Shown here: positions 13,985-53,320 of the stretch, piece by piece
How positions within the stretch are numbered: position 1 is the first letter of the stretch
Layout: every line of letters starts with the position of its first letter
DNA from: an uncultured Pseudomonadota bacterium
GTDB lineage: Bacteria; Pseudomonadota; Alphaproteobacteria; RF32; CAG-239
Reading direction: 5' to 3'
NCBI GenBank assembly: GCA_902763535.1
Contig: CACWSG010000004.1
Location: 7,568-71,567 of the forward strand
DNA: 64,000 nucleotides
Translations under genes and position numbers: made by a program
Notes under the pieces: model-generated
What the model saw: the letters and a program-made list of their open reading frames with translations, nothing else
What the model was told of the DNA's origin: nothing
The model's database searches: none

Positions 13985-14820
13985 GAGAAACCTAAAATTC
14001 TCGGTTGTTTTTTTATATATCCCCCTCGGACACTTTTTTATTGTCATCCTTGGGGACGCGTTTTTTTTATATGTCATCCTTGGGGACGCGTCAGCGTAAC
14101 CCGAGGATCCAAGCAAATTAGATTCAGAATAGATTCTCGGGTCATACACTCAGTGTATCGCCCGAGAATGACTTTTGGACACTTTTGGTCACTCAAAAGT
14201 GTCAATAATATAAAAAAATTCGAAGATGCCTAATTCGCTCATTTCACTCGCTCAGGCATGACAAAAAACTGTCACCCCTGAAGCCCCTCTACTGTCACCC
14301 TCGGACTTGGAGTCGATAGTTGGCGAGAACAAGGCGCTAGCCGCAGTTCAAGGCTTACGAGACGAAAGGGGCCCAGCTTCGTTGGGAATATCCATCCGAG
14401 GGTCAAACAAATTATCTTCGATTCTCGGGTCAAGCCCGAGAATGACATAAAAGAAAATAAGCCCAAGAATGACAGAAGAAAAATATCGCCCGAGAATGAC
14501 TTTTTATATAGGGTTTGGGATTGCGAGACAAGCGGAATAAGCAAACAGCGAAAAGGCTGGCAAAGATTTGCTTTATGCGGCTTTTGTCGGGCGCGTAAGT
14601 CGCCTGTAAATAAGCCGCAGCCTTATGCCTTTGAGCTGTTTGCCCGCTTGGCGAACAGCCCAATGACTTTTGGACACTTTTGGTCACTCAAAAGTGTCAA
14701 TAATATAATAAAATCGGAAGATGCCTAATTCGCTCATTTCACTCGCTCAGGCATGACAAAACCGGTAATGTCACCCCTGAGTGGTTTGCCAAAACCACGA
14801 ATTAGGGGTCTTCGATGTTT
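13985..14820. repeat. Repeat-dense non-coding region made of several hairpin-repeat families
   Basis: gtcatccttggggacgcg appears twice. (c)ccgagaatgac/attctcggg inverted copies appear at least 5 times. A unit of about 115 nt (approx 14167-14281 and 14662-14780) contains gacacttttg-gtcact-caaaagtgtc and atgcct-aattcgctcatttcactcgctc-aggcat hairpins. Confidence 0.85.
14511..14663. mobile_element. MITE-like 153-nt self-complementary element, copy 1
   Basis: Matches 16653-16805 with 2 mismatches, same orientation. Imperfect terminal inverted repeats (ttgggattgcgagacaagcgg / ccgcttggcgaacagcccaa). Nested internal pairings gcaaacagc/gctgtttgc, aaggctg/cagcctt, tgcggctt/aagccgca. Confidence 0.7.
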
Positions 14821-16526
14821 TAGAACAATTTCAACACTGCATTATTGGATTGTGCCGCTAAGGCAAGAGCATTGACTGCTAATGAATTTCTAGTTTGCAA
14901 AGCAAGATAATTTGCTGACTCTTCATTCATATCCGCCAATACCAAATCATCAGCACCAGTCTGTAATACATCAACCAAACCATCAGTGAAATTCATGCGT
15001 GTTTCAATGATACTTAAATTGTTGCCCAACCTTGCAACCTCATCACGAATAGAAATCATTGCATTTTGAATTTCTTTGATGCTTGCGGCAATATCGCCTT
15101 TGGTCTGCCACTCGCGAGTTGTAATGCCCAATCCGCTCAAGCTCATATCTTTGCCGTTAATAGTATAACTATGCGTGCGGTCTTCATTAAACATTGTGGT
15201 CAACTTGCCGCCTTTGAGCAGGTTGACACCTTGATAACTACTGTCTGATATCATCTCATCAAAAGCACTCATCGCCGTCAAATATTGCTCCGCGCTTTGC
15301 GCTAAAACTTTTTCATCAGCTCGCGGTTCGGCAGTCGGATAAACAAATTGCTCATCTTCAGCCATTCTCTGCACATTCAAAAGGCTTTGAATATTTGATG
15401 CTTGTATATTTTGATTTATTAAACTGGCATCTTCCATCACTTCATAACTTCGCCCACCAACCGTAACATGTGCTCCTTTAGCATAATTAATAACAACCAT
15501 ATTGCTTTCATAGGCCCCTCTTATAGCATTACCCAAAACATCAGCCGAAGCAGCTATATTAACAGTTCCACCTTCACAACCCCACCACCCGTTATTAAAC
15601 ATTTTTCCTTCTATATTTAATACACCATTACTGCAACACAAAACCCCAAAACCTTGAGTTTTGCAGGTTAATTTAGCTCCACTTTTTATCATCATATTTG
15701 CATTGTTTCTAATACCGCGGTTTTGGTTGTCTCCCATAGTTTTAAGATTAACATTTCCTTCAATGGATAAATTCCCCAGATTATAAACAGTGTATGACCA
15801 ATTTGAGCGAATTGGATTGTCTTGATTTATTTCTACATTCTTGATAGTCATCGTTCCATTGTTGCGCAAACAACTATTTGCTGATGAATTAGTGGTAGCA
15901 AAATTGATACTCAAATCCGATATCAAATTGTTTGCCGTGGTATTATTAGCTAACATAATAATGTTACGAGTGCAAGAGGCACTTATCGATGAGAATTTAT
16001 CTATCTCGCTGTCAAAATCGCCAAAATATCCGACACCGACCAGTTTTTGGTTATCATTTAAGGTTAAACCGGAAGTTATTTCGCCCATATCGATATGCCC
16101 ATAAACACAAATGGTTTCCTTGTTAGCATTGACCGCATCTTTGAGCTCTTGTGCTGTTGATACAACCGCGCCATTAGGGCCGACTTGAGCTTCAAACCAA
16201 GCCTTTTCCGGTATGATTGCTGCCTCGTATGCTTCTTTGGCAATCACCGCGGCATTTTCCAATATCTCGCCGCTGGCTTCTAAGCCTTTTACCGCCGTGG
16301 TAATAGTCTGGATACTTTGCCCCATGCTATCAAGGAGCATATCAAGGTCGCTTGCTCGGTTGGTCAAAGCTCGGCTTTGATAATAAGAGTTGGCATTATC
16401 AATCGCTGAGTTCACTTTTTTGCCGGTAGAAAGTCGTGTCTGGGTGGTGGACATCTGACTTGCCAACGACTTCAAGGAACTCAAGTTGCTGCGCATACTG
16501 GAGGTCAAAGTTATGTTAACAGACAT
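14820..16526 (-). CDS. Flagellin-family protein with beta-helix-like central insert
   Basis: True start is ATG 16526 (MSVNITLTSSMRSNLSSLKSL..), preceded by AAGGAGGGGG. The track ORF to 16808 is read-through of the repeat. Flagellin N- and C-terminal helices are present (..NFTDGLVDVLQTGADDLVLADMNEESANYLALQTRNSLAVNALALA). The centre has N.G.l.I-type repeats. Confidence 0.8.
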   Translation of the reverse strand: MSVNITLTSSMRSNLSSLKSLASQMSTTQTRLSTGKKVNSAIDNANSYYQSRALTNRASDLDMLLDSMGQSIQTITTAVKGLEASGEILENAAVIAKEAYEAAIIPEKAWFEAQVGPNGAVVSTAQELKDAVNANKETICVYGHIDMGEITSGLTLNDNQKLVGVGYFGDFDSEIDKFSSISASCTRNIIMLANNTTANNLISDLSINFATTNSSANSCLRNNGTMTIKNVEINQDNPIRSNWSYTVYNLGNLSIEGNVNLKTMGDNQNRGIRNNANMMIKSGAKLTCKTQGFGVLCCSNGVLNIEGKMFNNGWWGCEGGTVNIAASADVLGNAIRGAYESNMVVINYAKGAHVTVGGRSYEVMEDASLINQNIQASNIQSLLNVQRMAEDEQFVYPTAEPRADEKVLAQSAEQYLTAMSAFDEMISDSSYQGVNLLKGGKLTTMFNEDRTHSYTINGKDMSLSGLGITTREWQTKGDIAASIKEIQNAMISIRDEVARLGNNLSIIETRMNFTDGLVDVLQTGADDLVLADMNEESANYLALQTRNSLAVNALALAAQSNNAVLKLF

Positions 16527-16652
16527 AACCCCCTCCTTTTTATTATAACTAATTCGTAGACCCCTAATTCGCTCCTTACAGTCGCTCAGGGGTGACAGGT
16601 GGTGAAATAGACCCCTAATCTTGCTCAAGGGGTGACAGTTTAAAGATTCATC

Positions 16653-16805
16653 GGGTTTGGGATTGCGAGACAAGCGGAATAAGCAAACAGCGAAAAGGCT
16701 GGCAAAGATTTGCTTTGTGCGGCTTTTGTCGGGCGCGTAAGTCGCCTGTAAATAAGCCGCAGCCTTATGCCTTTGAGCTGTTTGCCCGCTTGGCGAACAT
16801 CCCAA
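16653..16805. mobile_element. MITE-like 153-nt element, copy 2 (in the 5' leader of the flagellin-like gene)
   Basis: See copy 1. Followed by the 12-bp perfect hairpin gttacttttggg-tg-cccaaaagtaac. Confidence 0.7.
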
Positions 16806-16894
16806 CACTTTTTGGTTACTTTTGGGTGCCCAAAAGTAACATAAACCGCTTGCAATTACATTGATTAACTGATTGATTTTATTAGATATTCCAT

Positions 16895-17194: not shown

Positions 17195-17232
17195 TAAAAA
17201 AAGGAGCTTTAATTTCTCAAAGCTCCTTTTTT
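17195..17232 (-). terminator. Intrinsic terminator ending the AKR-flavodoxin-larBCE-transporter operon
   Basis: 9-bp stem aggagcttt/aaagctcct flanked by A-run and T-run, 3 nt after the stop of the 17235-17897 gene. Confidence 0.7.
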
Positions 17233-17234
17233 AG

Positions 17235-17897
17235 TTACAAGCCGCACAGTATTGCAACACCGCAAAGTATAATGGTCAATCCGGCCAACTCGTGCGTCCA
17301 GTTTTCCAATTTGTGCCAATGCAATTTTTGCAATCCCAGCAAGCCGATTGACACCATTGCCATCATCGCCGCAATTGTTGCAACCGAAAAAATAAAGGTT
17401 GAGCTGATGACGGCTTTGGTGCTCAAGACGCTTGCCGCGGTTAAAATCGGCAACAAAGCTTCACATGGGCCCAATACAAAAATAATAAAAATCACCCAGA
17501 CACTGATGTTTTTATCTTTGGGCAAATCATGGTGATGATGATTGTGCGGAGCGCGTAATTTGTGTTGCAACTTGTGTCGCAAGGCAAAAATTATATAAAC
17601 CACACCCAGTACAATCAAAGCCCAAGCCGCCACATCCGAGCGATGTTCTTCCAACCACGCAAACTGCTCTTGATTCAAAAAATGCGACAGATAGACAAAG
17701 CCCAAAGCAATCAACAAAGCACTGCCGATATGCCCGATACCGCATATAAAAGTCCACAGCAAAGTTTTTTTCAAACTGTAATTGCGAGCTTTGGCAATGG
17801 CGATAAACGGCAGATAGTGATCCGGTCCGGTAACTGTGTGAATGACGGCAGTCAAAAAAGCGGTCAACCACAATGAATAAATTGTAATATGTGTCAT
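17235..17897 (-). CDS. His-rich-loop membrane protein, probable Ni/Co transporter (NicO/RcnA-like)
   Basis: 6 TM helices, HTVTGPDH in TM1, GPCE in the second half, cytoplasmic loop APHNHHHHD. Sits at the end of the lar cluster. Confidence 0.5.
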   Translation of the reverse strand: MTHITIYSLWLTAFLTAVIHTVTGPDHYLPFIAIAKARNYSLKKTLLWTFICGIGHIGSALLIALGFVYLSHFLNQEQFAWLEEHRSDVAAWALIVLGVVYIIFALRHKLQHKLRAPHNHHHHDLPKDKNISVWVIFIIFVLGPCEALLPILTAASVLSTKAVISSTFIFSVATIAAMMAMVSIGLLGLQKLHWHKLENWTHELAGLTIILCGVAILCGL

Positions 17898-17917
17898 AAT
17901 CGTAAAAATAATTTAAG

Positions 17918-18748
17918 TTAAATTGTTCTTGTTTTTTTTAAGGTCTCATTCATGCTGCCGGTGCGATAACCTTTTAGGTCGAGAGTTGTATAAGCAAAAC
18001 CCATTTCGGTAAACTCATTATTGATTTTTTGGCGTACATTATCGACCATAATTTTAGCAAAGTCTTCCGGCAAAATTTCTATTCGAGCTAAATTGCCATG
18101 AATTCGCACCCTAAACTGTCTAAATCCCAAATTAAGCAAAAGCTGTTCAGCCTTATCAACCATCATCAGTTTTTCTTTGGTGATTGTTTCGCCATAAACA
18201 AAACGCGAGGCCAAACAGGCAAAAGATGGTTTATCCCAAGTCGGCAACCCCATTTCTTTTGAAATGTCGCGAATGTCTTGTTTGGAAAGATTACAATCCC
18301 GCAAAGGGCTTTTGATGTTTTGTTCACTCAATGCCTGCAATCCGGGACGATAATCTCCCATATCATCCAAATTGGAGCCTTCAACAATATGCTCAAATCC
18401 TTTATCCAAAGCAATTTTTTTGAGTTGCGTAAAAATAGCCGACTTGCAAAGATAACAACGATTAGCAGGATTTTTTACCACTGCATCATTATGCAGAATA
18501 TCTATCGGTACAATGATATGATTTATCTTTCGGTTGGCACAAAATTCTTTCGCTTCGTCCATTTCGCGCAGTGGGAAAAAATCTGATATTGCAGTCAAAA
18601 CCAGCAATTTATTGGAAGGCAAAACTTCTTTTGCTACCGCGACCAAAAAGGTTGAATCAACTCCGCCGGAGAAGGCTATTGCAACCGATTCCAAATTTTT
18701 AAGGTAGCACTTTAAATCCGCCAACTTTTGTTCTAAATCTTTATTCAT
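17918..18748 (-). CDS. larE: LarE, ATP-dependent sacrificial sulfur transferase (PP-loop)
   Basis: Likely start is MNKDLEQ at 18748, an 8-nt overlap with the larC stop. PP-loop SGGVDS. SFACLASRF contains the conserved Cys. Confidence 0.8.
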   Translation of the reverse strand: MNKDLEQKLADLKCYLKNLESVAIAFSGGVDSTFLVAVAKEVLPSNKLLVLTAISDFFPLREMDEAKEFCANRKINHIIVPIDILHNDAVVKNPANRCYLCKSAIFTQLKKIALDKGFEHIVEGSNLDDMGDYRPGLQALSEQNIKSPLRDCNLSKQDIRDISKEMGLPTWDKPSFACLASRFVYGETITKEKLMMVDKAEQLLLNLGFRQFRVRIHGNLARIEILPEDFAKIMVDNVRQKINNEFTEMGFAYTTLDLKGYRTGSMNETLKKTRTI

Positions 18749-20027
18749 AATACTCTTTGCTTTCAGCTTTTTGTTGCGCGGCGGTAAAAATTTCGTGAAA
18801 CGAAGCACCCGATTTCAGCGCCAATTCTTTAACACTTTCATATTCCGGCTGACAACGGATAATGTCTTTATAGGTGGAAATTTTGACCTTTACCTCGCCA
18901 TTTTGCAATTTTACTTTAACAATTTTACGCTCCATGCAAGAACGATCCACCATATATTTGCGCAAACCGATTGTCGATGTATGGCGAAAGACGGCATCTT
19001 CAACTTTTGCCAAAGCAGCGCCATTGGTAATTGCCCGCAACATATACGCCGGACGGCACTTTTTCATATAACAGGGCTCAAAATGCACATCAAAAGCACC
19101 GGCTGAAAAAATTTGTTCCATTGCAAAACCCAGTTCTTCAGGTGTTGAGTCGTCAATATTGCTTTCTACCACCCACATCTGGTCGTCATCCGAAACATCT
19201 TCAATCAGCATAATGCGCAAAAAATTAGCTTTGCCAAAGTCGCGTTTGCCTAATCCGATGCCTGATTTTAAGATTTTGTATTGTGCCGGCAATCTGTCAT
19301 GCGTTTTTATGGCTGCGGCAATAGCTATGCCGGTAGGGGTAACCATTTCTCCTTTTACGGCACTGGAGCGCAAAACAATACCTTCGGCTTGTGCAATATT
19401 AAACACGGCCGGAACCGGTACGGGAAGCTCACCATGCTGGCACATAATAGTGCCTTCACCCTCGGTCAAACCGCAGACAATGCAATTCTCTATTCTCAAA
19501 TCATCAATCAACACAGCTGCTGAAATAATATCGACTATTGAATCAATTGCGCCGACTTCGTGAAAATGCACTTCTTCTTTTTTCACTCCGTGAGCTTTGG
19601 CTTCGGCAACAGCCACGATGTCAAAAATTTTTTTAGCCAATGTTTTGGCTTTATCGCTCATATCAGCACTGTCAATAATAGCAATAACATCATTCAAGTG
19701 GCGATGCTGATGGTGATGGTGCTCATGTTCATGATGATGTTCATGTTCATGTTCATGTTCATGATCGTGATGATGGTGCTCATGTTCATGATGATGCTCA
19801 TGATAATGTTCTTCATGCGGTGCATCTTCATGATGGTGTACGGCAAAATCAAGTCCGGCAATGCTGTATGAATTTTTATGCTCAATGTGATAATGAAATT
19901 CATCGGAATTAAGACTGCGCAAAGCCTTTTCCATTTTTTCTTTTGCTGCTCCCATATTCAAAAGAGCGGCCACCGTCATATCGCCGGAAATTCCGCTTGC
20001 ACCTTCAATATAGAGATATTTAGTCAT
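18741..20027 (-). CDS. larC: LarC, nickel insertion (NPN cyclometallase), DUF111 family
   Basis: N-terminal GASGISGDM. Very long His/Glu tract (HHHEDAPHEEHYHEHHHEHEHHHHDHEHEHEHEHHHEHEHHHHQHRH). DUF111-type C-terminus. Confidence 0.85.
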   Translation of the reverse strand: MTKYLYIEGASGISGDMTVAALLNMGAAKEKMEKALRSLNSDEFHYHIEHKNSYSIAGLDFAVHHHEDAPHEEHYHEHHHEHEHHHHDHEHEHEHEHHHEHEHHHHQHRHLNDVIAIIDSADMSDKAKTLAKKIFDIVAVAEAKAHGVKKEEVHFHEVGAIDSIVDIISAAVLIDDLRIENCIVCGLTEGEGTIMCQHGELPVPVPAVFNIAQAEGIVLRSSAVKGEMVTPTGIAIAAAIKTHDRLPAQYKILKSGIGLGKRDFGKANFLRIMLIEDVSDDDQMWVVESNIDDSTPEELGFAMEQIFSAGAFDVHFEPCYMKKCRPAYMLRAITNGAALAKVEDAVFRHTSTIGLRKYMVDRSCMERKIVKVKLQNGEVKVKISTYKDIIRCQPEYESVKELALKSGASFHEIFTAAQQKAESKEYYE

Positions 20028-20700
20028 TATTTTTTCCTTTTAATTTGAGAATGCGAAACGCTTGCACCGCAGCCCCAAAACCATTGTCAATATTGACAAC
20101 CGATACCCCCTCAGCACAGGAATTTAACATTGCCAAAAGCGCAGACAGCCCGCCTAAAGAAGCACCATAGCCAACCGAAGTTGGTACGGCAATCACCGGC
20201 GAACTTACCAATCCTGCCACTACCGAGGCAAGCGCACCTTCCATGCCGGCAACCGCAATTATAACATCATTTTGGCGGATATCCTCGATTTTGCTCAACA
20301 AACGGTGCAGTCCGGCTATTCCGACATCATAATGGCGTGATACTTCGCTTCCGAAAAATTCCAAAGTTTTGGCAGCTTCTTCCGCCACCGGCAAATCAGC
20401 CGTTCCTGCACAGCAGACTGCGACTTTGCCGCCGACATTGGGTAAAGGCTCACCTAAAGTTAAAACTTTTGATGTTACATCATATTCAACAGCCAATCCG
20501 TTGGAGACCACAAAGTCAGCCTGTTCTTGGGAGCATCGCGTTCCCAAAACCGCACAATTTTTTTTCTGAAAAGTGCGCAAAATTTCTACTAACTGCTCCT
20601 TAGTTTTGCCGGCACAAAAAATTGTTTCCGGCAATCCGGTGCGCTCTTTTCTACTCAAATCGAGTTTGGCAAAACCTATGTCTGTATATGTATCGGCCAT
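20020..20700 (-). CDS. larB: LarB, NaAD carboxylase/hydrolase (PurE-like)
   Basis: AIR-carboxylase-like core VAVCCAGTADLPVAEEA ... AVAGMEGALASVVAGL ... PVIAVPTSVGYG. Start shares one base with the flavodoxin stop (TAATG). Confidence 0.85.
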   Translation of the reverse strand: MADTYTDIGFAKLDLSRKERTGLPETIFCAGKTKEQLVEILRTFQKKNCAVLGTRCSQEQADFVVSNGLAVEYDVTSKVLTLGEPLPNVGGKVAVCCAGTADLPVAEEAAKTLEFFGSEVSRHYDVGIAGLHRLLSKIEDIRQNDVIIAVAGMEGALASVVAGLVSSPVIAVPTSVGYGASLGGLSALLAMLNSCAEGVSVVNIDNGFGAAVQAFRILKLKGKNND

Positions 20701-21278
20701 TATTTTACATCAAATCCCAAACCTTTAAGCCAATCGGCAATTCCCATTGTGCGGTCGTTATAACCGACCCAAGGTGCATCGCTTACTTTGCAGCCTTTGC
20801 ATTGAGCAGTCAAATCGCTGACTGTATTTTGAACACCGCCGCCACCGTGAGTGATGAACGGAATAACAGTTTTACCGCTCAGGTCATAAGCTTGAAGAAA
20901 ACTGGACAATTGCGGAGTGATAGTGCTCCACCAATTGGGAGTACCGATAAATACTACATCATATTGCGCCAAATTCTCAAGTTTTGTTGTCAAGGCCGGA
21001 CGATAATTGTTGGTAATTTCTTCTTTGGCTTGTTGAACCATTTCATTATAATTTTCCGGATAAGTTCCCTCAGTTTTGATTTCAAACATATCGCCGCCGA
21101 TTTTGTCTTGAATGGCTTGAGCAACTTTTTTGGTATTGCCGCTGTACGAATAATAAACAATTAAGACTTTTCCCTCAGCGGATACTTTCTCGCTCGGGGT
21201 TTTTTGCGCCAAGGCTTTATATGTGCCAAACGATGCTGCCGCCATAATTAAAATTGCAATAATCAAATATTTATACAT
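20700..21278 (-). CDS. Flavodoxin-family protein with N-terminal signal peptide
   Basis: Signal MYKYLIIAILIMAAASFGTYKALA. Flavodoxin motifs VLIVYYSYSGNTKKVA, VFIGTPNWWSTI, PFITHGGGG. Confidence 0.75.
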   Translation of the reverse strand: MYKYLIIAILIMAAASFGTYKALAQKTPSEKVSAEGKVLIVYYSYSGNTKKVAQAIQDKIGGDMFEIKTEGTYPENYNEMVQQAKEEITNNYRPALTTKLENLAQYDVVFIGTPNWWSTITPQLSSFLQAYDLSGKTVIPFITHGGGGVQNTVSDLTAQCKGCKVSDAPWVGYNDRTMGIADWLKGLGFDVK

Positions 21279-21303
21279 ATCAATTCTCCTTAATGTTTAT
21301 CAA

Positions 21304-22542
21304 TTAAGCTTCAAAAACTTTTGCAACCTCTTTCATCCAGTCGCTGATTTTTATGTGTTGCGGACAATGTTTTTCACAAGCATGACAATGCAAGCAAGCT
21401 GATGATTTGGTTGAGTTTTTAATAAGGTTACTATAATAAACTTTTTGCACGGTAAAGGGCTTATCACTGCGTTCTTGTTTTTCGGCATTATAGAGGGCAA
21501 ACATCGCCGGAATATCAATCTTCATCGGGCAATATTCAACACAATAACGGCAAGCCGTACAAGGAATAGCAATTGCCGAATGCAGTTCTTTTACTGCATT
21601 TTCAACCACTTTGTATTCATCGCTGGTCAAAGGCTTAAAGTTTTGCATATAAGAGGTATTGTCCTCCAATTGTTCCATGGTGGTCATGCCGGATAGTACC
21701 ATCATCACTCCATCTAATGAGGCAGCATAACGAATTGCCCAAGAAGCCGGAGACATATCAGGTTCGGCATCCTTAAATACTTTTTCAACTGCCGGAGGAA
21801 CTTGGGCCAATGATCCGCCTTTAACCGGTTCCATGACCACAACCGGCAAATTGTATTTTTGCGCTATTTCATAGCACTTGCGCGATTGAATGGAGGTGTT
21901 GTCCCAATCAATATAGTTGATTTGCAACTGCACAAAATCAAGGTCAGGATTCTCTTTAATAACCTCTTCCAACAATTCAGGTGAATCATGGAATGAAAAT
22001 CCGATATTTTTAATCAAACCTTGCTTTTTCTTTTCTTTAATAAAGTTAAAGCTGTTGTGTTTGCGAATTTTATCAATTGTTCCGGCATTAACATTGTGAA
22101 TCATATAATAGTCAAAATATTTTAAACCGGTCTTTTCCAGTTGTTTATTGAAAACTTCTTCTTGTTCGGCTTCAGATTTTAAGTACCCTGCCGGCAGTTT
22201 GCTGGCTACGGTGAAACTATCGCGCGGGTGGCGTTCTACCACGGATTTACGAATAGCAACTTCACTTTCATAGCCCATATACATCCATGCTGTATCAAAA
22301 TAGGTGAAGCCGCGTTCCATAAATTTATCAACCATCTGATTGAGCAATTCATAATCAATTGAAGTCTGATCATCGGGATTTTTCAATGGTAAACGCATAA
22401 ATCCAAATCCCAATTTGTTCTTTGGATTCACAACAGCTTTTACCTTATCGGATACGGCAATTGTTTCACCGAATGTTAATTTGGGCAAAGCAGCACAGGC
22501 AAAAAAGGCTAAAGTACTCATTAAAAACTCGCGACGATTCAT
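21304..22542 (-). CDS. Aldo/keto reductase with C-terminal 2x[4Fe-4S] ferredoxin domain and twin-arginine signal
   Basis: MNRREFLMSTLAFFACAALP matches RRxFL plus an h-region. AKR TIM-barrel motifs (FDTAWMY, GFSFHD). CTACRYCVEYCP and CLHCHACEKHCP. Confidence 0.8.
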   Translation of the reverse strand: MNRREFLMSTLAFFACAALPKLTFGETIAVSDKVKAVVNPKNKLGFGFMRLPLKNPDDQTSIDYELLNQMVDKFMERGFTYFDTAWMYMGYESEVAIRKSVVERHPRDSFTVASKLPAGYLKSEAEQEEVFNKQLEKTGLKYFDYYMIHNVNAGTIDKIRKHNSFNFIKEKKKQGLIKNIGFSFHDSPELLEEVIKENPDLDFVQLQINYIDWDNTSIQSRKCYEIAQKYNLPVVVMEPVKGGSLAQVPPAVEKVFKDAEPDMSPASWAIRYAASLDGVMMVLSGMTTMEQLEDNTSYMQNFKPLTSDEYKVVENAVKELHSAIAIPCTACRYCVEYCPMKIDIPAMFALYNAEKQERSDKPFTVQKVYYSNLIKNSTKSSACLHCHACEKHCPQHIKISDWMKEVAKVFEA

Positions 22543-22577
22543 TTTATCATATCTCCTTATAATTATAAAAACGACTG

Positions 22578-22608
22578 ATTGTAAAATTTAGAGCTTACTC
22601 TAAGTCAA
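22578..22608 (-). promoter_or_regulatory. MerR-type promoter/operator, site A (upstream of the AKR-lar operon)
   Basis: Minus strand: TTGACT-TAGAGTAAGCTCTAAATTT-TACAAT. The spacer is 19 nt and the dyad is TTAGAGT-AA-GCTCTAA (one arm mismatch). The -35 overlaps the tatC stop codon. Confidence 0.6.
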
Positions 22609-24901: not shown

Positions 24902-25807
24902 TTATTTTTTGTTAATGGGAAATACTTGCACGGAAGCATTCGCACCTTTAGCCTGAGTACCGGAATTTACAGAACTGCTGATTCCTGCCGCAGCACTTGC
25001 CGAAGATTTGGCGGCATTTTTAGGTGCTTGCAAAGCCGGAGCTAACGGATAAGCATTTTTCGCCAAGCGCAAAATCATATAGCCGTTGCCTCCGCCATAA
25101 GCCGGTCCGGAAATACCGATTGAATAATATCCACCGATATAACCATAATCCAAATCTATGTAATCGACCACAAAAACAGTCTTTACGCTGGATGAACCGA
25201 TTGTTGTCATGTTGCAGGTATATTGACTATCTTCCAATAAAATGTGATCAATATCACGGATAAATAAAATAGATTGGGACGGAGTGCACGAGGCAACCTG
25301 ACCGCCATAAGTCAAGTTGTAATTTAGAATTAATTTCATGCTGTCATTTTTCTTGCCCAATATAACATCAGTAATTTTTACGCTGTCGATATAAGCATAA
25401 GTGGGCACAATACCAACCTTAACAGGTAAAGCGATATAATTTTCCAAGCAAGTATGGGCGGTGTCGCTGGCTTTACAAATAAGGGCGGTGGAATAATTGT
25501 TGTTATCTAATAACTGCAATAAAGAATTATGAATGTATTCTTTGGTCATTGACAGCTTAGCCGGAGCACATTGTTGCGAACGACATACAACAACCGGAGC
25601 ACGACCGGGAACTGAGGGCTGAAAATCAGTATTGGCTTCCGGATTATCAGAACAATCTTCACAAACTTTCTCAACAAACCTGTTTGAATCATCAATAAGA
25701 TCGCCAGATAAAATCTGTTTAGGTGTATGCGTGCGCAAATAATTACACCCAACCAATGTCTGAGATACAGCCAAAACCATCGCAATAAAAAATGTTTTTC
25801 GTAACAT
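24902..25807 (-). CDS. Hypothetical lipoprotein
   Basis: Likely start MLRKTFFIAMVLAVSQTLVGC (lipobox). Ala/Ser-rich low-complexity tail. No recognised domain. Confidence 0.5.
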   Translation of the reverse strand: MLRKTFFIAMVLAVSQTLVGCNYLRTHTPKQILSGDLIDDSNRFVEKVCEDCSDNPEANTDFQPSVPGRAPVVVCRSQQCAPAKLSMTKEYIHNSLLQLLDNNNYSTALICKASDTAHTCLENYIALPVKVGIVPTYAYIDSVKITDVILGKKNDSMKLILNYNLTYGGQVASCTPSQSILFIRDIDHILLEDSQYTCNMTTIGSSSVKTVFVVDYIDLDYGYIGGYYSIGISGPAYGGGNGYMILRLAKNAYPLAPALQAPKNAAKSSASAAAGISSSVNSGTQAKGANASVQVFPINKK

Positions 25808-25965
25808 ATCGCACCAAGCCCGATTCATCCAAAATATATTCTATAATATGCATGCTTCATATAAATACAAAGTTTTTTTTTAGGTTATTCTATGAATTTT
25901 TATTTTTTTGCTTGATAATTTTTTTTAATCGGAGCAAATTACTGAGCAAACAGCAGGTAAATGAA

Positions 25966-29066: not shown

Positions 29067-30281
29067 TTAAAAAAATGTTTTAGCTTTTTGCAAGGCATTG
29101 CATAAAATATCAATATCTTCTTTGGTGTTATACATTCCCAAAGATGCTCTCAAAACCGACTCATAACCCATGCGGCGCACCAAAGGAGCGGCACAATGGT
29201 GTCCGACTCGCAAAGCCAGCCCTTCTTTATCCAGTATAAAGGCCAAATCTTGCGGATGAATTCCCTCAATCACAAAAGAATAAATTCCGCTTCGGCTTTT
29301 GTGAGTGCCGAGCATTTTAAGCCCCTCAATTTTATGCAGTTTATCAAAAGCATATTCGGCCAAATCGTCTTCATAGGCTTTAATATTATCCATGCCCAAA
29401 TTCATCATATATTGCAAAGCCTCACCCATACCGATTGCCTGTACAATCGCCGGTGTTCCGGCCTCAAATCTTGCCGGAGGCTCATCAAATGTGGTTGAAG
29501 TATAGGTAACAACATTAACCATATCGCCGCCATATTGATAGGGAGGCATTGCCGATAATATATCATATTTGGCATAAAGTACGCCGATTCCGGTCGGACC
29601 ATAGGTTTTATGTCCGGAAAAGGCTAAAAAATCACAGTCTAAATCTTGTACATCAATCTTTTGGTGTACTGCATATTGGCAGGCATCAATCAAAACTTTA
29701 GCTCCGATTCGGTGTGCTGAAGCAATAATATCTTTAATCGGGAAAATCGTACCCAATACATTGGACATTCCCGTAATCGCCACCAATTTGGTTTTTCCGC
29801 TCAGTTTGGAACAAAAATCATCCCAATCAAATGAACCGTCATCATTGACACGGCATATTTTCAGCTCAAAACCTATTTCGTCGCGCAGGACCTGCCATGG
29901 CACAAGGTTGGCATGATGTTCGGCTTCTGAAATAATAACCTCATCAATTTTGGTTAAAAATTTTCTGCCCCAAGTAAAAGCCGTTAAATTAATAGCTTCG
30001 GTTGCATTGCGGGTAAAAACGATATCTTCTTTTTGTTTGGCATTAATAAATTTTTGCACAATCTGCCGTGCATTTTCATAAGCGGAAGTAATTTCTTCGG
30101 ACAGCAGATAAGATCCGCGATGTACATTGGCATATTCCGAACCATAAGTTTTCACAATTCGGTCAATCACGCATTGAGGTTTTTGCGCTGAGGCTGCCGT
30201 ATCTAAAAAAGTGTTAGGTTTACCGTTGACAGCAACCTTAAAAATAGGAAAATCTTGGCGAACTTTTTCTACATCAAACAT
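29067..30281 (-). CDS. sufS: Cysteine desulfurase SufS
   Basis: Class V aminotransferase. FSGHKTYGPTGIGVL carries the PLP Lys and RVGHHCAAPL the catalytic Cys. Confidence 0.9.
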   Translation of the reverse strand: MFDVEKVRQDFPIFKVAVNGKPNTFLDTAASAQKPQCVIDRIVKTYGSEYANVHRGSYLLSEEITSAYENARQIVQKFINAKQKEDIVFTRNATEAINLTAFTWGRKFLTKIDEVIISEAEHHANLVPWQVLRDEIGFELKICRVNDDGSFDWDDFCSKLSGKTKLVAITGMSNVLGTIFPIKDIIASAHRIGAKVLIDACQYAVHQKIDVQDLDCDFLAFSGHKTYGPTGIGVLYAKYDILSAMPPYQYGGDMVNVVTYTSTTFDEPPARFEAGTPAIVQAIGMGEALQYMMNLGMDNIKAYEDDLAEYAFDKLHKIEGLKMLGTHKSRSGIYSFVIEGIHPQDLAFILDKEGLALRVGHHCAAPLVRRMGYESVLRASLGMYNTKEDIDILCNALQKAKTFF

Positions 30282-30311
30282 TGTTATCTATATCCTCTAT
30301 ATTGCTCTTTA

Positions 30312-31559
30312 CTATGATTGCAGCAATAATTTAATCCAGTCAGCAATTTTTTCATTATCAACTTTAGCAATAACTTCCTGCAAGTATGCATCAACCAACA
30401 TTGCTTTGGCCTCTTCTTCACCCAGTCCTCTCGAGCGCAGATAGAAAAGTTGTTCAGCATCAAGTTGCCCGCAAGCTGAGCCATGGGAGCATTGGACATC
30501 ATCAGCAAAAATCTCCAACTCCGGTTTTACATCAACTTCGGCTTCATCGGTTAAAAGAAGTGCGCGGTGTTGTTGATAACCTTTAGTTTTGATTGCGTTT
30601 GGTTCAATGTGGATGCAACCCTGAAAAACGCCTTTGGCCTGTCCTCCGACCACACCTTTAACCAGCTGATCAGAAAAAGTTTCAGCCACCAAATGTTCAA
30701 TATCGGTAGTGGTATCAATCGTAGCCCATCCGTTCATCATATAAGCTGCATTAACTTCGGCTTTTGCTAAAGTATCGGCAAGCCGAACTTTTGATTCATT
30801 GCGTGCCAAATCCGCACCTTTTTGCAGACAAAAGCTTTTGTAATAACCTGATTTTTTAACTTCAACGCAGCTTAGGGCCAAATGAATGGCTTTGAAAGCC
30901 TCCATCTGAGCTTTATAATGCTTTAGAACAGCATTTTCTCCGATATGAATTTCATTCACCACATTGTTAAAATAGACCGATTTTTGATCGCCGGTATAGT
31001 TAAAATATTCGATTAACTCTGCTCTGGCACCTTTCTCCAGTACAACTAAATTGCGTATATTAGACATCGGGCGTGCATTTTGACAACTTGAATGATATAC
31101 CAAAGCTAAAGGCTTTTCCAATTGGCAATCATTGGGAATTTTGATATAAATTCCTTCATTAAGATAAGCTGTATTCAATGCGGCAAAAGGGTGTTTTGTG
31201 TTATCGACTAATTTACCAACCATATTTTTGGCTTGAGCGTCAAACATCACAAACTCTGCCAACGGCATTATCTCAATTTCCGACGGAAGATTGGATATAT
31301 TAGGAGCAAAAACGCCGTCAATAAAAGTTACCTGATATGTTGCAAACGGAAATTCATAACGATAGTTTGCAGAACATCCGGCGCTGTAAACCTCAAATTC
31401 ATCGGTTAAAAACATATTGGGTTTGGTATATTTCCAAGCTTCAGTCTTAGCATTCGGAATACCCAAAGCAGTAAAAGTGTCGCGCCCGCTTTGACGCAAC
31501 TCTTTCAGCCAAGGAATGTTTTCTCCCAACAGTTTTACCTGATGCAGCAACTTGGTCAT
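30312..31559 (-). CDS. sufD: Fe-S cluster assembly protein SufD
   Basis: 415 aa beta-helix protein, C-terminus DVQCSHGSACGQLDAEQLFYLRSRGL, overlaps the sufC stop. Confidence 0.85.
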   Translation of the reverse strand: MTKLLHQVKLLGENIPWLKELRQSGRDTFTALGIPNAKTEAWKYTKPNMFLTDEFEVYSAGCSANYRYEFPFATYQVTFIDGVFAPNISNLPSEIEIMPLAEFVMFDAQAKNMVGKLVDNTKHPFAALNTAYLNEGIYIKIPNDCQLEKPLALVYHSSCQNARPMSNIRNLVVLEKGARAELIEYFNYTGDQKSVYFNNVVNEIHIGENAVLKHYKAQMEAFKAIHLALSCVEVKKSGYYKSFCLQKGADLARNESKVRLADTLAKAEVNAAYMMNGWATIDTTTDIEHLVAETFSDQLVKGVVGGQAKGVFQGCIHIEPNAIKTKGYQQHRALLLTDEAEVDVKPELEIFADDVQCSHGSACGQLDAEQLFYLRSRGLGEEEAKAMLVDAYLQEVIAKVDNEKIADWIKLLLQS

Positions 31560-32332
31560 GCTTGTTCCTTTACAAATTCGGAATATCCGGTGCGTTCCAG
31601 CTCTTCTGCTAAATCTTTGTTGCCGGTTTTAACAATTTTGCCGCCGGTATATACATGCACAAAATCAGGCACAATATAGTTTAACAGTCTTTGGTAGTGA
31701 GTAATAACCAACAATCCGCTTTGCGGGGTGCGGCAGGCATTAACCCCTTCGCCGATAATACGCATGGCATCAATATCAACACCGGAGTCCGCTTCATCCA
31801 AAATTGCCAAGCAGGGGCGCAAAATTGCCATTTGCAAAGTTTCCAATCTTTTAGCCTCACCGCCGGAAAAACCGACATTTATTGAGCGTTTCAACATATC
31901 AGCATTAAGATTCAGCTTACGGCCTTCTTCACGCAGCAGTTTCATAAATTCCACGGTGTCCATTTCTTTTTCGCCGCGATAAGCTCGCAGACTGTTTAGG
32001 GCGTGTTTCAAAAACGGAGTGATGGATACTCCCGGAATTTCAACCGGTTTTTGCATCGATAAGAACAAACCTTCACGAGCTCTTTCTTCGACCGACATTT
32101 GCAATAAGTCTTTTCCCTTAAACAAGACTCTGCCGGAAGTTACTTCATAACCCGGCTTGCCGCATAACACATAGGATAATGTCGATTTTCCGGCACCGTT
32201 CGGGCCCATGATGGCATGAACTTCACCTTCATTAATGGTCAAATTAAAACCTTTGATAATTTCTTTATTTTCAACTTTGGCATGCAAGTCTTCAATTTCG
32301 AGTAGAGGTTTGCTCATTTTTGTGCACTCCAA
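31556..32332 (-). CDS. sufC: Fe-S cluster assembly ATPase SufC
   Basis: Walker A GPNGAGKST, signature FSGGEAKR, Walker B AILDEADSG. Start may be the internal MSKPLLEIEDL (32317). Confidence 0.95.
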   Translation of the reverse strand: MECTKMSKPLLEIEDLHAKVENKEIIKGFNLTINEGEVHAIMGPNGAGKSTLSYVLCGKPGYEVTSGRVLFKGKDLLQMSVEERAREGLFLSMQKPVEIPGVSITPFLKHALNSLRAYRGEKEMDTVEFMKLLREEGRKLNLNADMLKRSINVGFSGGEAKRLETLQMAILRPCLAILDEADSGVDIDAMRIIGEGVNACRTPQSGLLVITHYQRLLNYIVPDFVHVYTGGKIVKTGNKDLAEELERTGYSEFVKEQA

Positions 32333-32589
32333 TCATCCAATCTTTGCTCAATTTTTTGCAGTTTTTGTTCTTTGTAATCAGCCACTTGTTTATGGATATT
32401 ATAGCAATATTTTAATTGTTCCAACATAATTTCGACATCGGCAGTTTCTTCAATAATCTCATCCACATTATCTTTGTGCCGATTAATGTTTTTAAGTATT
32501 TCTTTAATCAGTTCGCTCATTTCTTCAATAACTTGCAGCATTTGCGGCTCTTTGCCCCAAGTTTTTAAGGCTCTTTCATAAGTGTTCAT
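32314..32589 (-). CDS. Small MazG-like (all-alpha NTP pyrophosphohydrolase-type) protein inserted between sufB and sufC
   Basis: 91 aa. The start abuts the sufB stop and the end overlaps sufC. EEMSELIKEI ... IIEETADVEIMLEQL resembles the EExxE...ExxD metal motif of MazG-type domains. Confidence 0.45.
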   Translation of the reverse strand: MNTYERALKTWGKEPQMLQVIEEMSELIKEILKNINRHKDNVDEIIEETADVEIMLEQLKYCYNIHKQVADYKEQKLQKIEQRLDDWSAQK

Positions 32590-34044
32590 CTATCCGACAC
32601 TCCCTTCTAAACTTATGTTGATTAATTTGGCTGCTTCAATTGCAAATTCCATCGGCAGTTTTTGCATAACTTCTTTGCAAAATCCGTTTACGATAAGACT
32701 GATAGCCTCTTCTTCGGATATACCGCGTTGACGGCAATAAAAAAGTTGTTCATCCGATATTTTGGAGGTTGTAGCTTCATGTTCCAGTTGAGCAGTTTTA
32801 CAGCGGCTTTCTATATATGGCACAGTATGAGATCCGCAAGTTGCTCCAATCAAAAGACTGTCGCAACGCGTATAATTGCGGGCATTAGCGGCACTGGCAG
32901 CGGCTTTGACCAATCCGCGGTAGGTTTGGTTAGAAAATCCGGCGGAAATACCTTTTGATATAATACGAGAAGAAGTGTTTTTACCGATATGAATCATTTT
33001 GGTGCCGGTATCAGCTTGTTGACGATTATTGGTCAGGGCAACCGAATAAAACTCACCACATGAGTTGTCGCCCTGTAACACACAAGACGGATATTTCCAA
33101 GTAACGGCCGAACCTGTTTCGACCTGAGTCCATGAAACTTTGGAATTTACGCCGCGACAAGCGGCTCGTTTGGTTACAAAGTTATATACACCGCCTTTGC
33201 CTTCTTTGTCACCGGGATACCAGTTTTGCACGGTAGAATATTTTACTTCGGCATTATTCAACACCACTATTTCGACTATTGCCGCGTGCAGCTGATTCTC
33301 ATCGCGTTGCGGTGCCGTGCAACCTTCAAGATAAGAAACATAACTATCATCATCGGCTACAATCAATGTGCGCTCAAACTGACCGGTATTGCGGCTGTTG
33401 ATGCGAAAATAGGTCGATAATTCCATCGGACAGCGCACGCCTTTGGGAATATACACAAAAGTACCGTCGGTAAACACTGCTGAGTTAAGACAAGCAAAAA
33501 AATTGTCGGTGTAAGGTACGACAGAGCCAAGATATTTTTGCACCAAATCAGGATATTCTTTGATTGCTTCGGAAATTGAGCAGAAAATAATGCCTTTTTC
33601 TTTGAGTTGTGCTTGATAAGTCGTCGCTACCGAAACACTGTCAAAAACAGCATCAACCGCAACGACTCCGGCCAAAGCCTCTTGCTCTTTTAAGGGAATT
33701 CCAAGCTTTTCATAGGTCTTGAGAAGTTCTTTATCAACCTCATCCAAACTTTTAGGTGCAGTTTTTTGTTTGGGCGCCGAGTAATAGGCCAAAGCTTGAT
33801 AATCTATTGCATCATACTTTAGTTTTGCCCAATGCGGTTCCTTCATGGTCTGCCAAAATTCAAAAGCTTGCAATCGCTTTTGCAGCAGCCATTCCGGTTC
33901 ACCTTTTTTGTGCGAGATTATGCGGATAATATCGGCATTCAAGCCCGTTGGTACCGTATCGGCTTCAATATCTGTAACGAAGCCGTACTTATATTTATCT
34001 CCGCTTTCATCTGCGATTTGAATTTCATTTTTTGTATCAGTCAT
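32590..34044 (-). CDS. sufB: Fe-S cluster assembly scaffold SufB
   Basis: 484 aa with [19 protein letters not shown] and [21 protein letters not shown], typical of SufB. Confidence 0.95.
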
Positions 34045-41025: not shown

Positions 41026-42035
41026 ATGATGAGATTTTTGCTGACTTTGTTTTTAACCGTAATAATAGGGAAAAATGTAATGGCTGAAGATATACTAACC
41101 GCAAAAGAACAAGCTATCGCTTATGTGTCATCTTATGCAGCACGCGGCGATCAAATGGGCTTGAAAAAAGCAATTATACAAGGATTGGATAAAGGTGTTA
41201 CTATTAACGAACTTAAAGAAGTTTTGGTGCAGAGCTATGCCTATTGCGGTTTTCCGCGCAGTCTTAACGCATTGTCAACTTTGATGCAGACAGTGGAAGA
41301 ACGCGGCAATAAAGATGAAAAAGGTGCTGAGCCCGGTGCCAAACCGCAAGGAAGCAGCTTGGTATATGGCACGGAAAATCAGACCAAATTAACCGGAGCC
41401 GAGGTAAAAGGTAAACTGTTTGAATTTGCTCCGGCAATTGATGAATACTTAAAAGCCCACTTATTTGGTGATATTTTTGCTCGTGATAATTTGGATTGGA
41501 AAACTCGCGAACTGGCTACTATTGCTATGTTGGCTTCGCGTCAAGGAGTTGAAAGTCAATTGCAGGCGCACATAAATATCGGCAAACATAATGGGTTAAG
41601 TGATGAGCAAATCTCTGAAATCTTGAAAATTGCCTCTAAAACCGGAGCTGAGGCTGTGTTGTTTGGTTTTGGCGAAGAAAATACAGCTTATGCTCAATAT
41701 TTTATCGGTAAAAGCTATTTGCAGCCATTGACATCTGATGGAGTGGGAATGGCAAATGTCACATTTGAGCCCAAGTGCCGCAACAATTGGCATATTCATC
41801 ATAAAGGCGGTCAGATATTATTGGTTGTTGCCGGACAGGGATGGTATCAGGAATGGGGCAAACCGGCACAAAGCTTAAAGCCGGTGATGTAGTGAATATC
41901 CCTGCTGAGACAAAGCATTGGCACGGTGCCGCGGCTGATAGTTGGTTTACCCATATTGCAGTAGCCGTTCCGGCCGAAGGTGCAACAACCGAATGGCTGG
42001 AGCCGGTCAGCGATGAGGAATATAACAAATTGTAG
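41026..42035 (+). pseudogene. Exported carboxymuconolactone-decarboxylase (AhpD-like)/cupin fusion, interrupted by a 1-nt frameshift
   Basis: ORF 41026-41892 ends inside a cupin motif (HIHHKGGQILLVVAGQGWYQEWGKPAQSLK|PVM*). Frame +1 continues it (..LKAGDVVNIPAETKHWHGAA). The shift maps to ttaaag at 41875-41880, and one extra A would restore the frame. Signal peptide MMRFLLTLFLTVIIGKNVMA. Confidence 0.6.
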
Positions 42036-45518: not shown

Positions 45519-45593
45519 GCCGCTATAGCTCAGTGGTAGAGCACACCCTTGGTAAGGGTGGGGTCGCAAGTCCGATTCTTGCTAGCGGCACCA
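45519..45593 (+). tRNA. tRNA-Thr (anticodon GGT)
   Basis: Hand-folded cloverleaf: acceptor GCCGCTA/TAGCGGC, D-arm GCTC-AGTGGTA-GAGC, anticodon arm CACCC-TTGGTAA-GGGTG, T-arm GCAAG-TCCGATT-CTTGC, encoded CCA. The T-loop reads TCC rather than the usual TTC. Confidence 0.8.
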
Positions 45594-53290: not shown

Positions 53291-53320
53291 TTTTACTGTC
53301 CTTTCCATAAAAAAAGAGCT

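Follow-up and report, generated by a model that had tools for sequence, protein, structure and literature searches.

A gene cluster from an alphaproteobacterial metagenome-assembled genome probably encodes a periplasmic, quinone-linked nickel-pincer aldo/keto reductase

A gene cluster on the minus strand of a 64-kb stretch of contig CACWSG010000004.1 (the whole stretch is called the window here, and all positions refer to it) probably encodes a periplasmic, quinone-linked aldo/keto reductase (AKR) that uses a nickel-pincer cofactor. The reductase, termed AKR-FeS, starts with a twin-arginine leader and ends in a 2x[4Fe-4S] domain. Its gene stands beside larB, larC and larE (larBCE), the genes for making the nickel-pincer nucleotide cofactor (NPMN), and in the company of genes for a membrane polyferredoxin, for TatA and TatC of the twin-arginine translocation (Tat) system, for a flavodoxin and for a 220-aa membrane protein. 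From the gene identities, the leader and signal sequences, the conserved residues and the linkage across genomes, all of them observed directly, we infer the binding of NPMN, the electron path, the direction of the reaction and the substrate. AKR-FeS is most likely the user of the NPMN made by the adjacent larBCE genes, because its linkage with lar and nickel-transporter genes recurs in rearranged form and because lar-adjacent AKRs that bind NPMN have been published. As a whole, the composite explanation of the locus as a periplasmic, quinone-linked nickel-pincer AKR module is considered probable with some reservation; use of NPMN by AKR-FeS, taken alone, is held with somewhat more confidence, and the periplasmic wiring of AKR-FeS to a NapGH-like partner with more still.

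The Tat export of AKR-FeS and its link to the polyferredoxin are well supported by sequence, because the twin-arginine (RR) leader is conserved, tatA and tatC form part of the cluster and the polyferredoxin is of a dual Sec/Tat family. The leader begins MNRREFL and continues with a hydrophobic stretch of 13-15 residues, and all close homologues (120/120) carry the motif RRxF[LI]. Read by motif, AKR-FeS combines the features of a Tat substrate (MNRREFLMSTLAFFACAALP, an Fe-S protein, adjacent tatA and tatC), and tatA is found inside the cluster in most related loci (these are labelled by L-numbers, and neighbourhoods were checked within 10 kb of AKR-FeS). The polyferredoxin has four NapH-type transmembrane (TM) helices, along with two CxxxCP motifs and, on the cytoplasmic side, two [4Fe-4S] motifs. 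RRKLLIG then precedes TM helix five, and beyond this helix lie four more [4Fe-4S] motifs with a predicted periplasmic location; the RR motif and the TM segments are kept in orthologues. Its TM segments lie at residues 9-27, 43-61, 110-128, 142-160 and 256-274, and its NCBIfam alignments cover residues 52-234 (NapH) and 249-424 (NapG). In five-TM NapH-NapG fusion polyferredoxins Tat is required for TM5, and NapGH is a quinol dehydrogenase (Tooke et al. 2017, bioRxiv 10.1101/111781). The window protein has this same architecture, with RR before a weakly hydrophobic TM5, but is paired with AKR-FeS and not with a nitrate reductase, and its quinone link is predicted. A polyferredoxin of this kind adjoins AKR-FeS in L005, L006, L085, L087, L089, L091, L092, L094 and L095, and the link between AKR-FeS and the adjacent membrane polyferredoxin that was proposed in the original prediction made from this DNA is well supported.

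A cassette of AKR-FeS, polyferredoxin, TatA and TatC is also found in L085 (8688-13529), where the reductase is a 42%-identical relative from another diderm lineage and two tandem Tat-led AKR-FeS genes are followed by polyferredoxin, tatA and tatC. A cassette of the L085 type looks like a redox module that brings its own Tat translocase. The flavodoxin has a Sec-type signal peptide (h-region at residues 4-18, ending in ALA/Q) that is kept in the orthologues of L006, L087 and L095, while the Flavodoxin_4 protein that opens the lar/AKR-FeS operon of the cytoplasmic-type locus L118 has no leader. AKR-FeS, the polyferredoxin domain and usually the flavodoxin are thus all predicted to act on the periplasmic side.

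AKR-FeS genes adjoin larBCE in at least five lineages, in varied gene orders and together with two unrelated types of nickel transporter. Such repeated and rearranged linkage, combined with two unrelated nickel-uptake systems, is hard to explain unless AKR-FeS uses the cofactor; a chance juxtaposition in one genome was rejected because the rearranged linkage is repeated in other lineages. In the exported clade, lar genes are built into the module in at least four gene orders. In the window the order is polyferredoxin-TatAC-AKR-flavodoxin-LarBCE-220-aa membrane protein, and L005 has this order without the flavodoxin. L006 and L095 are arranged as AKR-flavodoxin-LarBCE-220-aa membrane protein-polyferredoxin-TatAC, and L091 and L092 as AKR-LarBCE-220-aa membrane protein-polyferredoxin, so that in both of these orders the lar block sits between AKR and polyferredoxin. 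L005 and L006 are alphaproteobacterial metagenome-assembled genomes (MAGs), 75% identical, and a Planctomycetia MAG (L089) has the order Tat-AKR-FeS-polyferredoxin-LarC. Among loci of the cytoplasmic type, LarE/LarB/LarC are found at 20 of 66 metagenome loci, which represent three lineages (the L122 group with 18 loci, L118 and L157). In Robinsoniella (L061) the order is MerR-LarE-LarB-LarC-AKR, and in L118 it is Flavodoxin_4-LarB-LarC-LarE-CbiM-CbiQ-CbiO-AKR-FeS.

The frequency of this linkage depends on the set of loci compared. Among 80 species-representative AKR-FeS loci, lar genes lie within 10 kb in three (L005, L006 and L061). Look-ups anchored on the AKR of the exported clade gave lar genes in the window, L005, L006, L092 and L095, and none in L087/L093 and L094, while in a metagenome scan of the exported type lar genes were present in 6/12 informative loci (those with enough flank) and absent from the other 6/12. 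A comparison of the top 120 AKR clusters with the top 120 LarC clusters gave 17 apparent shared contigs, recognized by eye from exact size coincidences, of which 8 are shorter than 10 kb. No LarA was present in any of the lar-containing related loci examined by their Pfam lists, and profile searches found no LarA/PF09861 (DUF2088) domain in any window open reading frame (ORF) of at least 250 aa, in line with the absence of LarA from the 64 kb claimed in the original prediction.

Clustered at 50% identity, the family of AKR-FeS has 7508 representatives at E<=1e-3 and 1065 at E<=1e-30. Its members are mostly about 370 aa long and start at query residue 42, and are therefore leaderless and cytoplasmic. 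These uncharacterised cytoplasmic AKR-Fer4 proteins of anaerobes share with AKR-FeS the two-domain architecture, the invariant S-x-H and M-E-P motifs and the eight cluster cysteines, and some adjoin larBCE too (L061, L118, L122, L157); unlike AKR-FeS, they lack a leader and tatAC, and for most of them no lar gene lies within 10 kb. No relevant literature was found on COG1453 or on a Tat-exported or periplasmic AKR with Fe-S clusters. Residue conservation was assessed in 21 close relatives and in the best 150 distant representatives of the family. The catalytic tetrad D83/Y88/K115/H149 is kept in 136-146 of the 150 representatives, and each of the eight cysteines in the two CxxCxxCxxxCP motifs (Cys 328/331/334/338 and 383/386/389/393) in about 135. 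The domain matches, these two motifs and the conserved leader agree with the description of an AKR with a twin-arginine leader and 2x[4Fe-4S] domain in the original prediction, as the Flavodoxin_4 match and the conserved signal do with its Sec-exported flavodoxin.

The cofactor site departs from that of canonical AKRs. The sequence GFS183-F-H185 ends beta-5 and M237-E238-P239-V240-K241 follows beta-7; among the 150 representatives S183 and H185 are each conserved in 149, M237 in 150, E238 in 141 and P239 in 146, while position 241 is K in 104 and R in 39. Position 184, occupied in canonical AKRs by the Asn for binding the nicotinamide carboxamide, is F or Y in 134/150, and the invariant Met takes the place of their aromatic stacking residue. 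Where beta-5 ends, canonical AKRs in the PDB have G-x-S-N-F, and alignments of these sequences with the family profile go no further than the Ser. In the AlphaFold 2 model of AKR-FeS (pLDDT 90.5; beta-5 at 177-184, beta-7 at 234-237), H185 and residues 238-241 lie at the C-terminal ends of beta-5 and beta-7, the site of cofactor binding in AKRs. The best PDB folds found for this model by Foldseek, in a library up to 2026-04-08 that predates 9YEB, are all AKRs.

The statement in the original prediction that only LarA-family enzymes are established users of the cofactor, and its proposal of a new class of enzyme, have been overtaken by Semersky et al. (Nat Chem, June 2026; PMC13524815), who mined LarC neighbourhoods lacking LarA and found AKR-lar co-occurrence in 427 cases. 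NphT of Alicyclobacillus cellulosilyticus is an AKR that binds NPMN covalently (+450 Da; structure PDB 9YEB), with the nickel coordinated by H144 and the thioamide formed by K200, and it catalyses redox-neutral intermolecular hydride transfer on sugars (aldoses); of the lar-adjacent AKRs, 34% have both His and Lys and 40% the His only (PMC13524815). As an AKR using the nickel-pincer cofactor is already published, the window AKR-FeS is not a new enzyme class; what is new relative to NphT is the exported, Fe-S-fused and polyferredoxin-partnered form. The two proteins share the AKR TIM-barrel, the D-Y-K-H tetrad, adjacent larB, larC and larE with no larA nearby, and, judged by position, a His two residues past the Ser/Thr of beta-5 that is absent from canonical AKRs. 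They differ in that AKR-FeS has the C-terminal 2x[4Fe-4S] domain and the twin-arginine leader (412 versus 291 aa), in its partners (NapH-NapG polyferredoxin, tatAC and exported flavodoxin), and in the net electron transfer implied for AKR-FeS as opposed to the redox-neutral hydride shuttling of NphT. The NphT chain 9yeb_A matches the AKR-FeS family profile at E 3.9e-13 (rank 32, profile 22-278 against chain 27-280), and was not among the matches listed with the sub-profiles 172-250, 230-322, 139-187 and 43-187 or with a reconstructed 1ynp query. The spacing T142-x-H144 of NphT equals S183-x-H185 of AKR-FeS, and by profile coordinates H144 fits H185. This positional agreement suggests that H185 may be equivalent to the nickel ligand of NphT. 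With the LarA lactate racemase superfamily AKR-FeS would share the cofactor made by LarB, LarC and LarE; the LarA proteins have an unrelated fold and are cytoplasmic racemases and epimerases without Fe-S domains.

In the proposed mechanism, LarB, LarC and the [4Fe-4S]-type LarE would make NPMN in the cytoplasm, with nickel probably supplied by the His-rich 220-aa membrane protein, and NPMN would be loaded into the AKR domain with His185 as the likely nickel ligand. Once folded and carrying its two [4Fe-4S] clusters, the holo-protein would be exported by the TatA and TatC encoded in the cluster, and in the periplasm the AKR tetrad would transfer a hydride between a carbonyl/alcohol substrate and the bound NPMN. 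The substrate would most plausibly be an aldose or an aldehyde; two GFO/IDH/MocA genes lie downstream in L118. Electrons would pass from the Fe-S domain of AKR-FeS to the periplasmic NapG-like domain of the polyferredoxin and on to the quinone pool, and the exported flavodoxin may take part where present, with FMN as a possible adaptor between two-electron and one-electron transfer. Judged from standard potentials the oxidative, quinone-reducing direction is more likely, because the aldose/lactone and aldehyde/acid couples lie far below menaquinone; aldehyde/alcohol couples also lie below it. The exchange of single electrons between the hydride carrier and the Fe-S clusters is the weakest and also the most interesting step, and recycling of the cofactor through the Fe-S domain is conjectural.

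Several observations weigh against this interpretation. The cross-genome linkage of the AKR with larBCE, a point on which the original prediction turned, recurs as described above but is incomplete: within 10 kb, lar genes are missing from 77 of the 80 loci that represent species across the wider AKR-FeS family, and also from most loci of the cytoplasmic type and about half of those of the exported type (L087/L093, L094, L098, L100, L102 and L105-L107), and L085 likewise has none. What 9yeb_A shares with the family falls mainly in the N-terminal half. K241 stands at the same 56-residue distance from its His as K200 does in NphT, but the profile offsets fit E238, the neighbour of the stacking position, equally well, so that K200 may match E238 and not K241. 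With Arg at position 241 in a quarter of the family (39/150) and Leu there in the lar-adjacent AKR-FeS of L089, a covalent Lys link is unproven, and the non-exchangeable loading of the original prediction is hypothetical; the window protein may belong to the His-only group without such a link. The flavodoxin is absent from the otherwise complete clusters of L005 and L091/L092 and is therefore not the obligatory electron link that the original prediction made of it. To our knowledge NPMN offers no precedent for single-electron transfer from Fe-S clusters to a hydride carrier, and the search for LarA in this genome covered the 64-kb window, so that a larA elsewhere is conceivable.

Part of this evidence would fit an explanation in which the lar genes serve another NPMN enzyme elsewhere in the genome, such as a LarA homologue, the adjacency of the AKR being an accident of gene order or the outcome of a shared nickel/Fe-S regulon, and AKR-FeS holds some other fixed cofactor, for example NAD(P) that is tightly bound ahead of Tat export. 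Besides the many AKR-FeS loci without lar genes nearby and the confinement of the larA search to the window, close relatives keep the polyferredoxin-TatAC-AKR-flavodoxin set without lar, the block of lar genes and 220-aa membrane protein occurs without an AKR in Akkermansiaceae, and the beta-8 region of AKR-FeS (VLSGMTTMEQLEDN) resembles that of the NADPH-binding AKR11 and AKR14 enzymes. A tightly bound cofactor also has a precedent, one that the original prediction did not take up, in the glucose-fructose oxidoreductase (GFOR) of Zymomonas mobilis, a periplasmic enzyme that is exported by Tat with tightly bound NADP. Like AKR-FeS as predicted here, GFOR is a Tat-exported periplasmic oxidoreductase (of sugars), in which a bound nicotinamide cofactor answers the lack of periplasmic NAD(P)H; it differs in its GFO/IDH/MocA Rossmann fold, in carrying NADP and not a nickel pincer, and in its redox-neutral ping-pong mechanism, and it has neither a membrane partner nor an Fe-S domain. 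We nevertheless regard this explanation as unlikely, given the linkage in at least five lineages with varied orders and with lar inserted between AKR and polyferredoxin, the lack of LarA in any lar-linked locus, the loss of both the carboxamide-binding Asn and the aromatic stacking residue together with the gain of an invariant His absent from canonical AKRs, and the experimental precedent for AKRs that bind NPMN (PMC13524815).

It is also conceivable, if quite improbable, that AKR-FeS binds NPMN but acts in the manner of NphT, in a redox-neutral disproportionation or transhydrogenation of periplasmic carbonyls, with the Fe-S domain, flavodoxin and polyferredoxin serving only sensing or an occasional reductive repair or activation, and no electron flow in catalysis. 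The sole characterised NPMN-dependent AKR does catalyse a redox-neutral intermolecular hydride transfer, no one-electron chemistry of NPMN is known, and the flavodoxin is dispensable in some clusters. The family-wide conservation of the eight cluster cysteines (about 135/150) and the retention across phyla of a polyferredoxin partner of the quinol-dehydrogenase type argue instead for a stoichiometric role in electron transfer. NphT itself is without an Fe-S domain or such a partner as far as it is described, the text of PMC13524815 mentioning no 4Fe-4S, ferredoxin, iron-sulfur, periplasm, twin-arginine or flavodoxin. A further alternative keeps AKR-FeS on the cytoplasmic side, either within the cytoplasm or at the membrane face turned towards it, its RR leader not being a working Tat signal and tatAC being general Tat genes that are there by chance. 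Most family members are indeed leaderless and cytoplasmic, and the leader was called by motif reading and not by a dedicated Tat predictor, yet this alternative is very hard to reconcile with NRRxFL and its hydrophobic stretch in all 120 homologues, with the same leader and tatAC in the other lineage represented by L085, with the internal RR-TM5 of a polyferredoxin from an experimentally Tat-dependent family, and with a flavodoxin signal peptide that is conserved only in the exported clade and missing from the L118 homologue. Preferring for these reasons a periplasmic, quinone-linked nickel-pincer AKR in the window, we also entertain, as a tentative extension that is rather doubtful at present, that the whole AKR-FeS family, with its thousands of proteins from gut and other anaerobes, is nickel-pincer dependent, with NPMN re-oxidised or re-reduced via the Fe-S clusters as a flavin-like converter of hydride to electrons, and that the window form would be the first periplasmic, quinone-linked and thus respiratory nickel-pincer dehydrogenase or reductase, exported as a holo-enzyme by the Tat system of its own cluster.

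The features of the cluster are listed in Table 1. The ORF list confirms the six tightly packed minus-strand genes of the original prediction (AKR-FeS, flavodoxin, LarB, LarC, LarE and membrane protein), of which the first junction is a gap of 25 nt, the second the 1-nt overlap TAATG, the third and fourth are overlaps of 8 nt each, and the last is a gap of 20 nt. The functional cluster, however, is larger than those six genes and begins upstream of them, taking in tatC, tatA and the polyferredoxin. The terminator placed downstream of the cluster was recovered as a hairpin with a U-run (dG -19.6 kcal/mol, z -5.8), and equal stability was reached in 0/200 shuffles. The promoter sequence proposed ahead of AKR-FeS is present, but with its 19-nt spacer it was missed by a consensus scan permitting spacers of 16-18 nt, and it overlaps the tatC stop, so that the evidence for it is weak; co-transcription of AKR-FeS with tatAC and the polyferredoxin is an equally possible alternative to a promoter of its own. 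The listed LarE ORF extends to a GTG at 18808; the ATG at 18748, which gives 276 aa and agrees with the gene call on the identical public contig, is most likely the start. An Rfam scan found no riboswitch or other RNA within the cluster, the sole match in the window being a tRNA at 45519-45590. The G+C content of the DNA is about 40%, close homologues are assigned by their sources to Alphaproteobacteria MAGs, and the species-representative relatives are rumen and gut MAGs.

Table 1. Genes and signals of the AKR-FeS/lar cluster in the window, in the direction of transcription
Feature	Position	Strand	Evidence
NapH-NapG fusion polyferredoxin, 432 aa	23541..24839	-	NapH/NapG/NapF NCBIfam matches and Fer4_5 x2
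TatA, 68 aa	23322..23528	-	PF02416 2.1e-15, TIGR01411
TatC, 238 aa	22605..23321	-	PF00902 3.3e-56, TIGR00945
Possible sigma-70-like promoter, TTGACT-19 nt-TACAAT	22578..22608	-	Sequence reading; weak evidence
Tat-led AKR with C-terminal 2x[4Fe-4S] domain (AKR-FeS), 412 aa	21304..22542	-	PF00248 1.1e-45, Fer4 dicluster models
Twin-arginine leader of AKR-FeS, MNRREFLMSTLAFFACAALPKLTFG	22468..22542	-	N-R-R-x-F-L invariant in alignment
Flavodoxin_4 protein, 192 aa, Sec-type signal peptide	20700..21278	-	PF12682 2.2e-28
LarB (nicotinic acid adenine dinucleotide (NaAD) carboxylase/hydrolase)	20020..20700	-	NF033503 1.4e-86, cutoff 175
LarC (CTP-dependent nickel insertase), LarC1 and LarC2 in one protein	18741..20027	-	PF01969 6.7e-125, TIGR00299, NF052512
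LarE, 276 aa, [4Fe-4S]-type sulfur insertase	17918..18748	-	TIGR00268 3.4e-98
Six- or seven-TM membrane protein, 220 aa, putative nickel permease	17235..17897	-	Motifs, lar context
Intrinsic terminator: A-tract, 16-bp stem, U-tract	17196..17232	-	RNA fold

The genes for cofactor synthesis have features of their own. LarE carries an AFSGGVDS PP-loop and the cysteine triad C98xxC101...C178, and a CXXC-C motif defines the [4Fe-4S] cluster-dependent LarE proteins (PMC9283937). By its motif the window LarE is thus assigned to the [4Fe-4S]-dependent, non-sacrificial type. LarC contains a His-rich insert with 28 His in residues 56-115, including HEHEHEHH repeats; related LarC proteins are 400-462 aa long, and the variation probably lies at this insert. 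The 220-aa membrane protein, called Ni-transporter-like in the original prediction, keeps that label by its context and motifs but not by family membership, since neither it nor 31 relatives gave a Pfam or NCBIfam match above threshold, including to the family models of known nickel permeases that were compared (NiCoT, HupE/UreJ, NicO and CbiMNQO). It has 1847 homologues, and all names given by the sources are 'hypothetical'. Motifs that are invariant in the alignment are HTxxGPDHYLPF, CGxGH and VLGPCEALLP, along with a His-rich loop, and the HxxxGxDH pattern among them is HupE/UreJ-like. A member of this family follows LarE in L005, L006, L091, L092, L101, L103, L104 and L108, and also in the AKR-less Akkermansiaceae locus L090 (12098-12763). 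The motifs and the strict linkage to lar together fit a candidate new nickel permease serving the lar pathway. Many members of the family carry an additional N-terminal extension resembling a signal peptide.

Other genes recur around the related loci. In L089 (12317-16622) LarC is flanked by six AKR paralogues; the non-FeS AKRs beside LarC were considered as NphT-like stepping stones and rejected, as they show canonical S-N/S-E/S-Q motifs in the alignment. Two of the canonical L089 AKRs (370 and 382 aa, no His motif) start with RR leaders (MDRRNFMKSAAIL and SRKDFLRTTLFLG), and ordinary AKRs in this Planctomycetia MAG thus also appear, by their leaders, to be exported by Tat. Beside lar/AKR-FeS in L089 (11682-13168) and L095 (17821-19297) stands a gene for a TetR regulator with one for a small AKR of 281-283 aa behind it, and the small AKR of L089 has a canonical G-V-S-N motif. 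A DUF362 gene adjoins AKR-FeS both in the alphaproteobacterial L005 (190-1179) and in the unrelated cytoplasmic-type L122 (8994-9860). Genes of the metallo-beta-lactamase fold (Lactamase_B_2) and of the CMD family recur around the alphaproteobacterial clusters L005, L006 and L095, and a CMD gene is present in the window at 41026-41892. In L094 (13066-21239) a phage-type integrase and a type III restriction-modification system lie directly downstream of AKR/flavodoxin, at the site that lar occupies in other relatives, and this insertion may have displaced or replaced the lar genes.

Elsewhere in the window, a predicted lipoprotein of 308 aa with an LVGC lipobox and no family match (24902-25828) lies directly upstream of the polyferredoxin; it is probably outside the module, as it was not found in L005 and L006. 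A complete SUF operon for Fe-S assembly (sufB, sufC, sufD and sufS; 29067-34044), joined on the public contig by an FeS_assembly_P gene, precedes the cluster at a distance of about 5 kb upstream. Its presence suits a locus with three Fe-S proteins, but the operon is probably a housekeeping one. Two atypical flagellin-like genes were noted, one at 14820-16808 (662 aa from the listed GTG start) with a large region between Flagellin_N and Flagellin_C, and one at 1243-2811 (522 aa) with Flagellin_N and an Lcl_C-like domain. A gene for a phage Mu F-like protein (52298-53308) may be a prophage remnant.

Nickel-pincer enzymes have so far been thought to be cytoplasmic and redox-neutral, comprising the LarA racemases and, since 2026, the hydride-shuttling NphT. 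The window locus points to a Tat-exported nickel-pincer form that is coupled to Fe-S clusters, a flavodoxin and a membrane protein of the quinol-dehydrogenase type, and it also flags an unannotated, lar-linked family of membrane proteins as candidate nickel permeases. If this is true, the nickel-pincer cofactor can support net oxidation or reduction tied to the respiratory chain, and hydride chemistry of the nicotinamide kind would be possible in the periplasm, a compartment that lacks NAD(P)H. The very large and uncharacterised AKR-FeS family, which is common in gut anaerobes, would then also gain a testable cofactor assignment.

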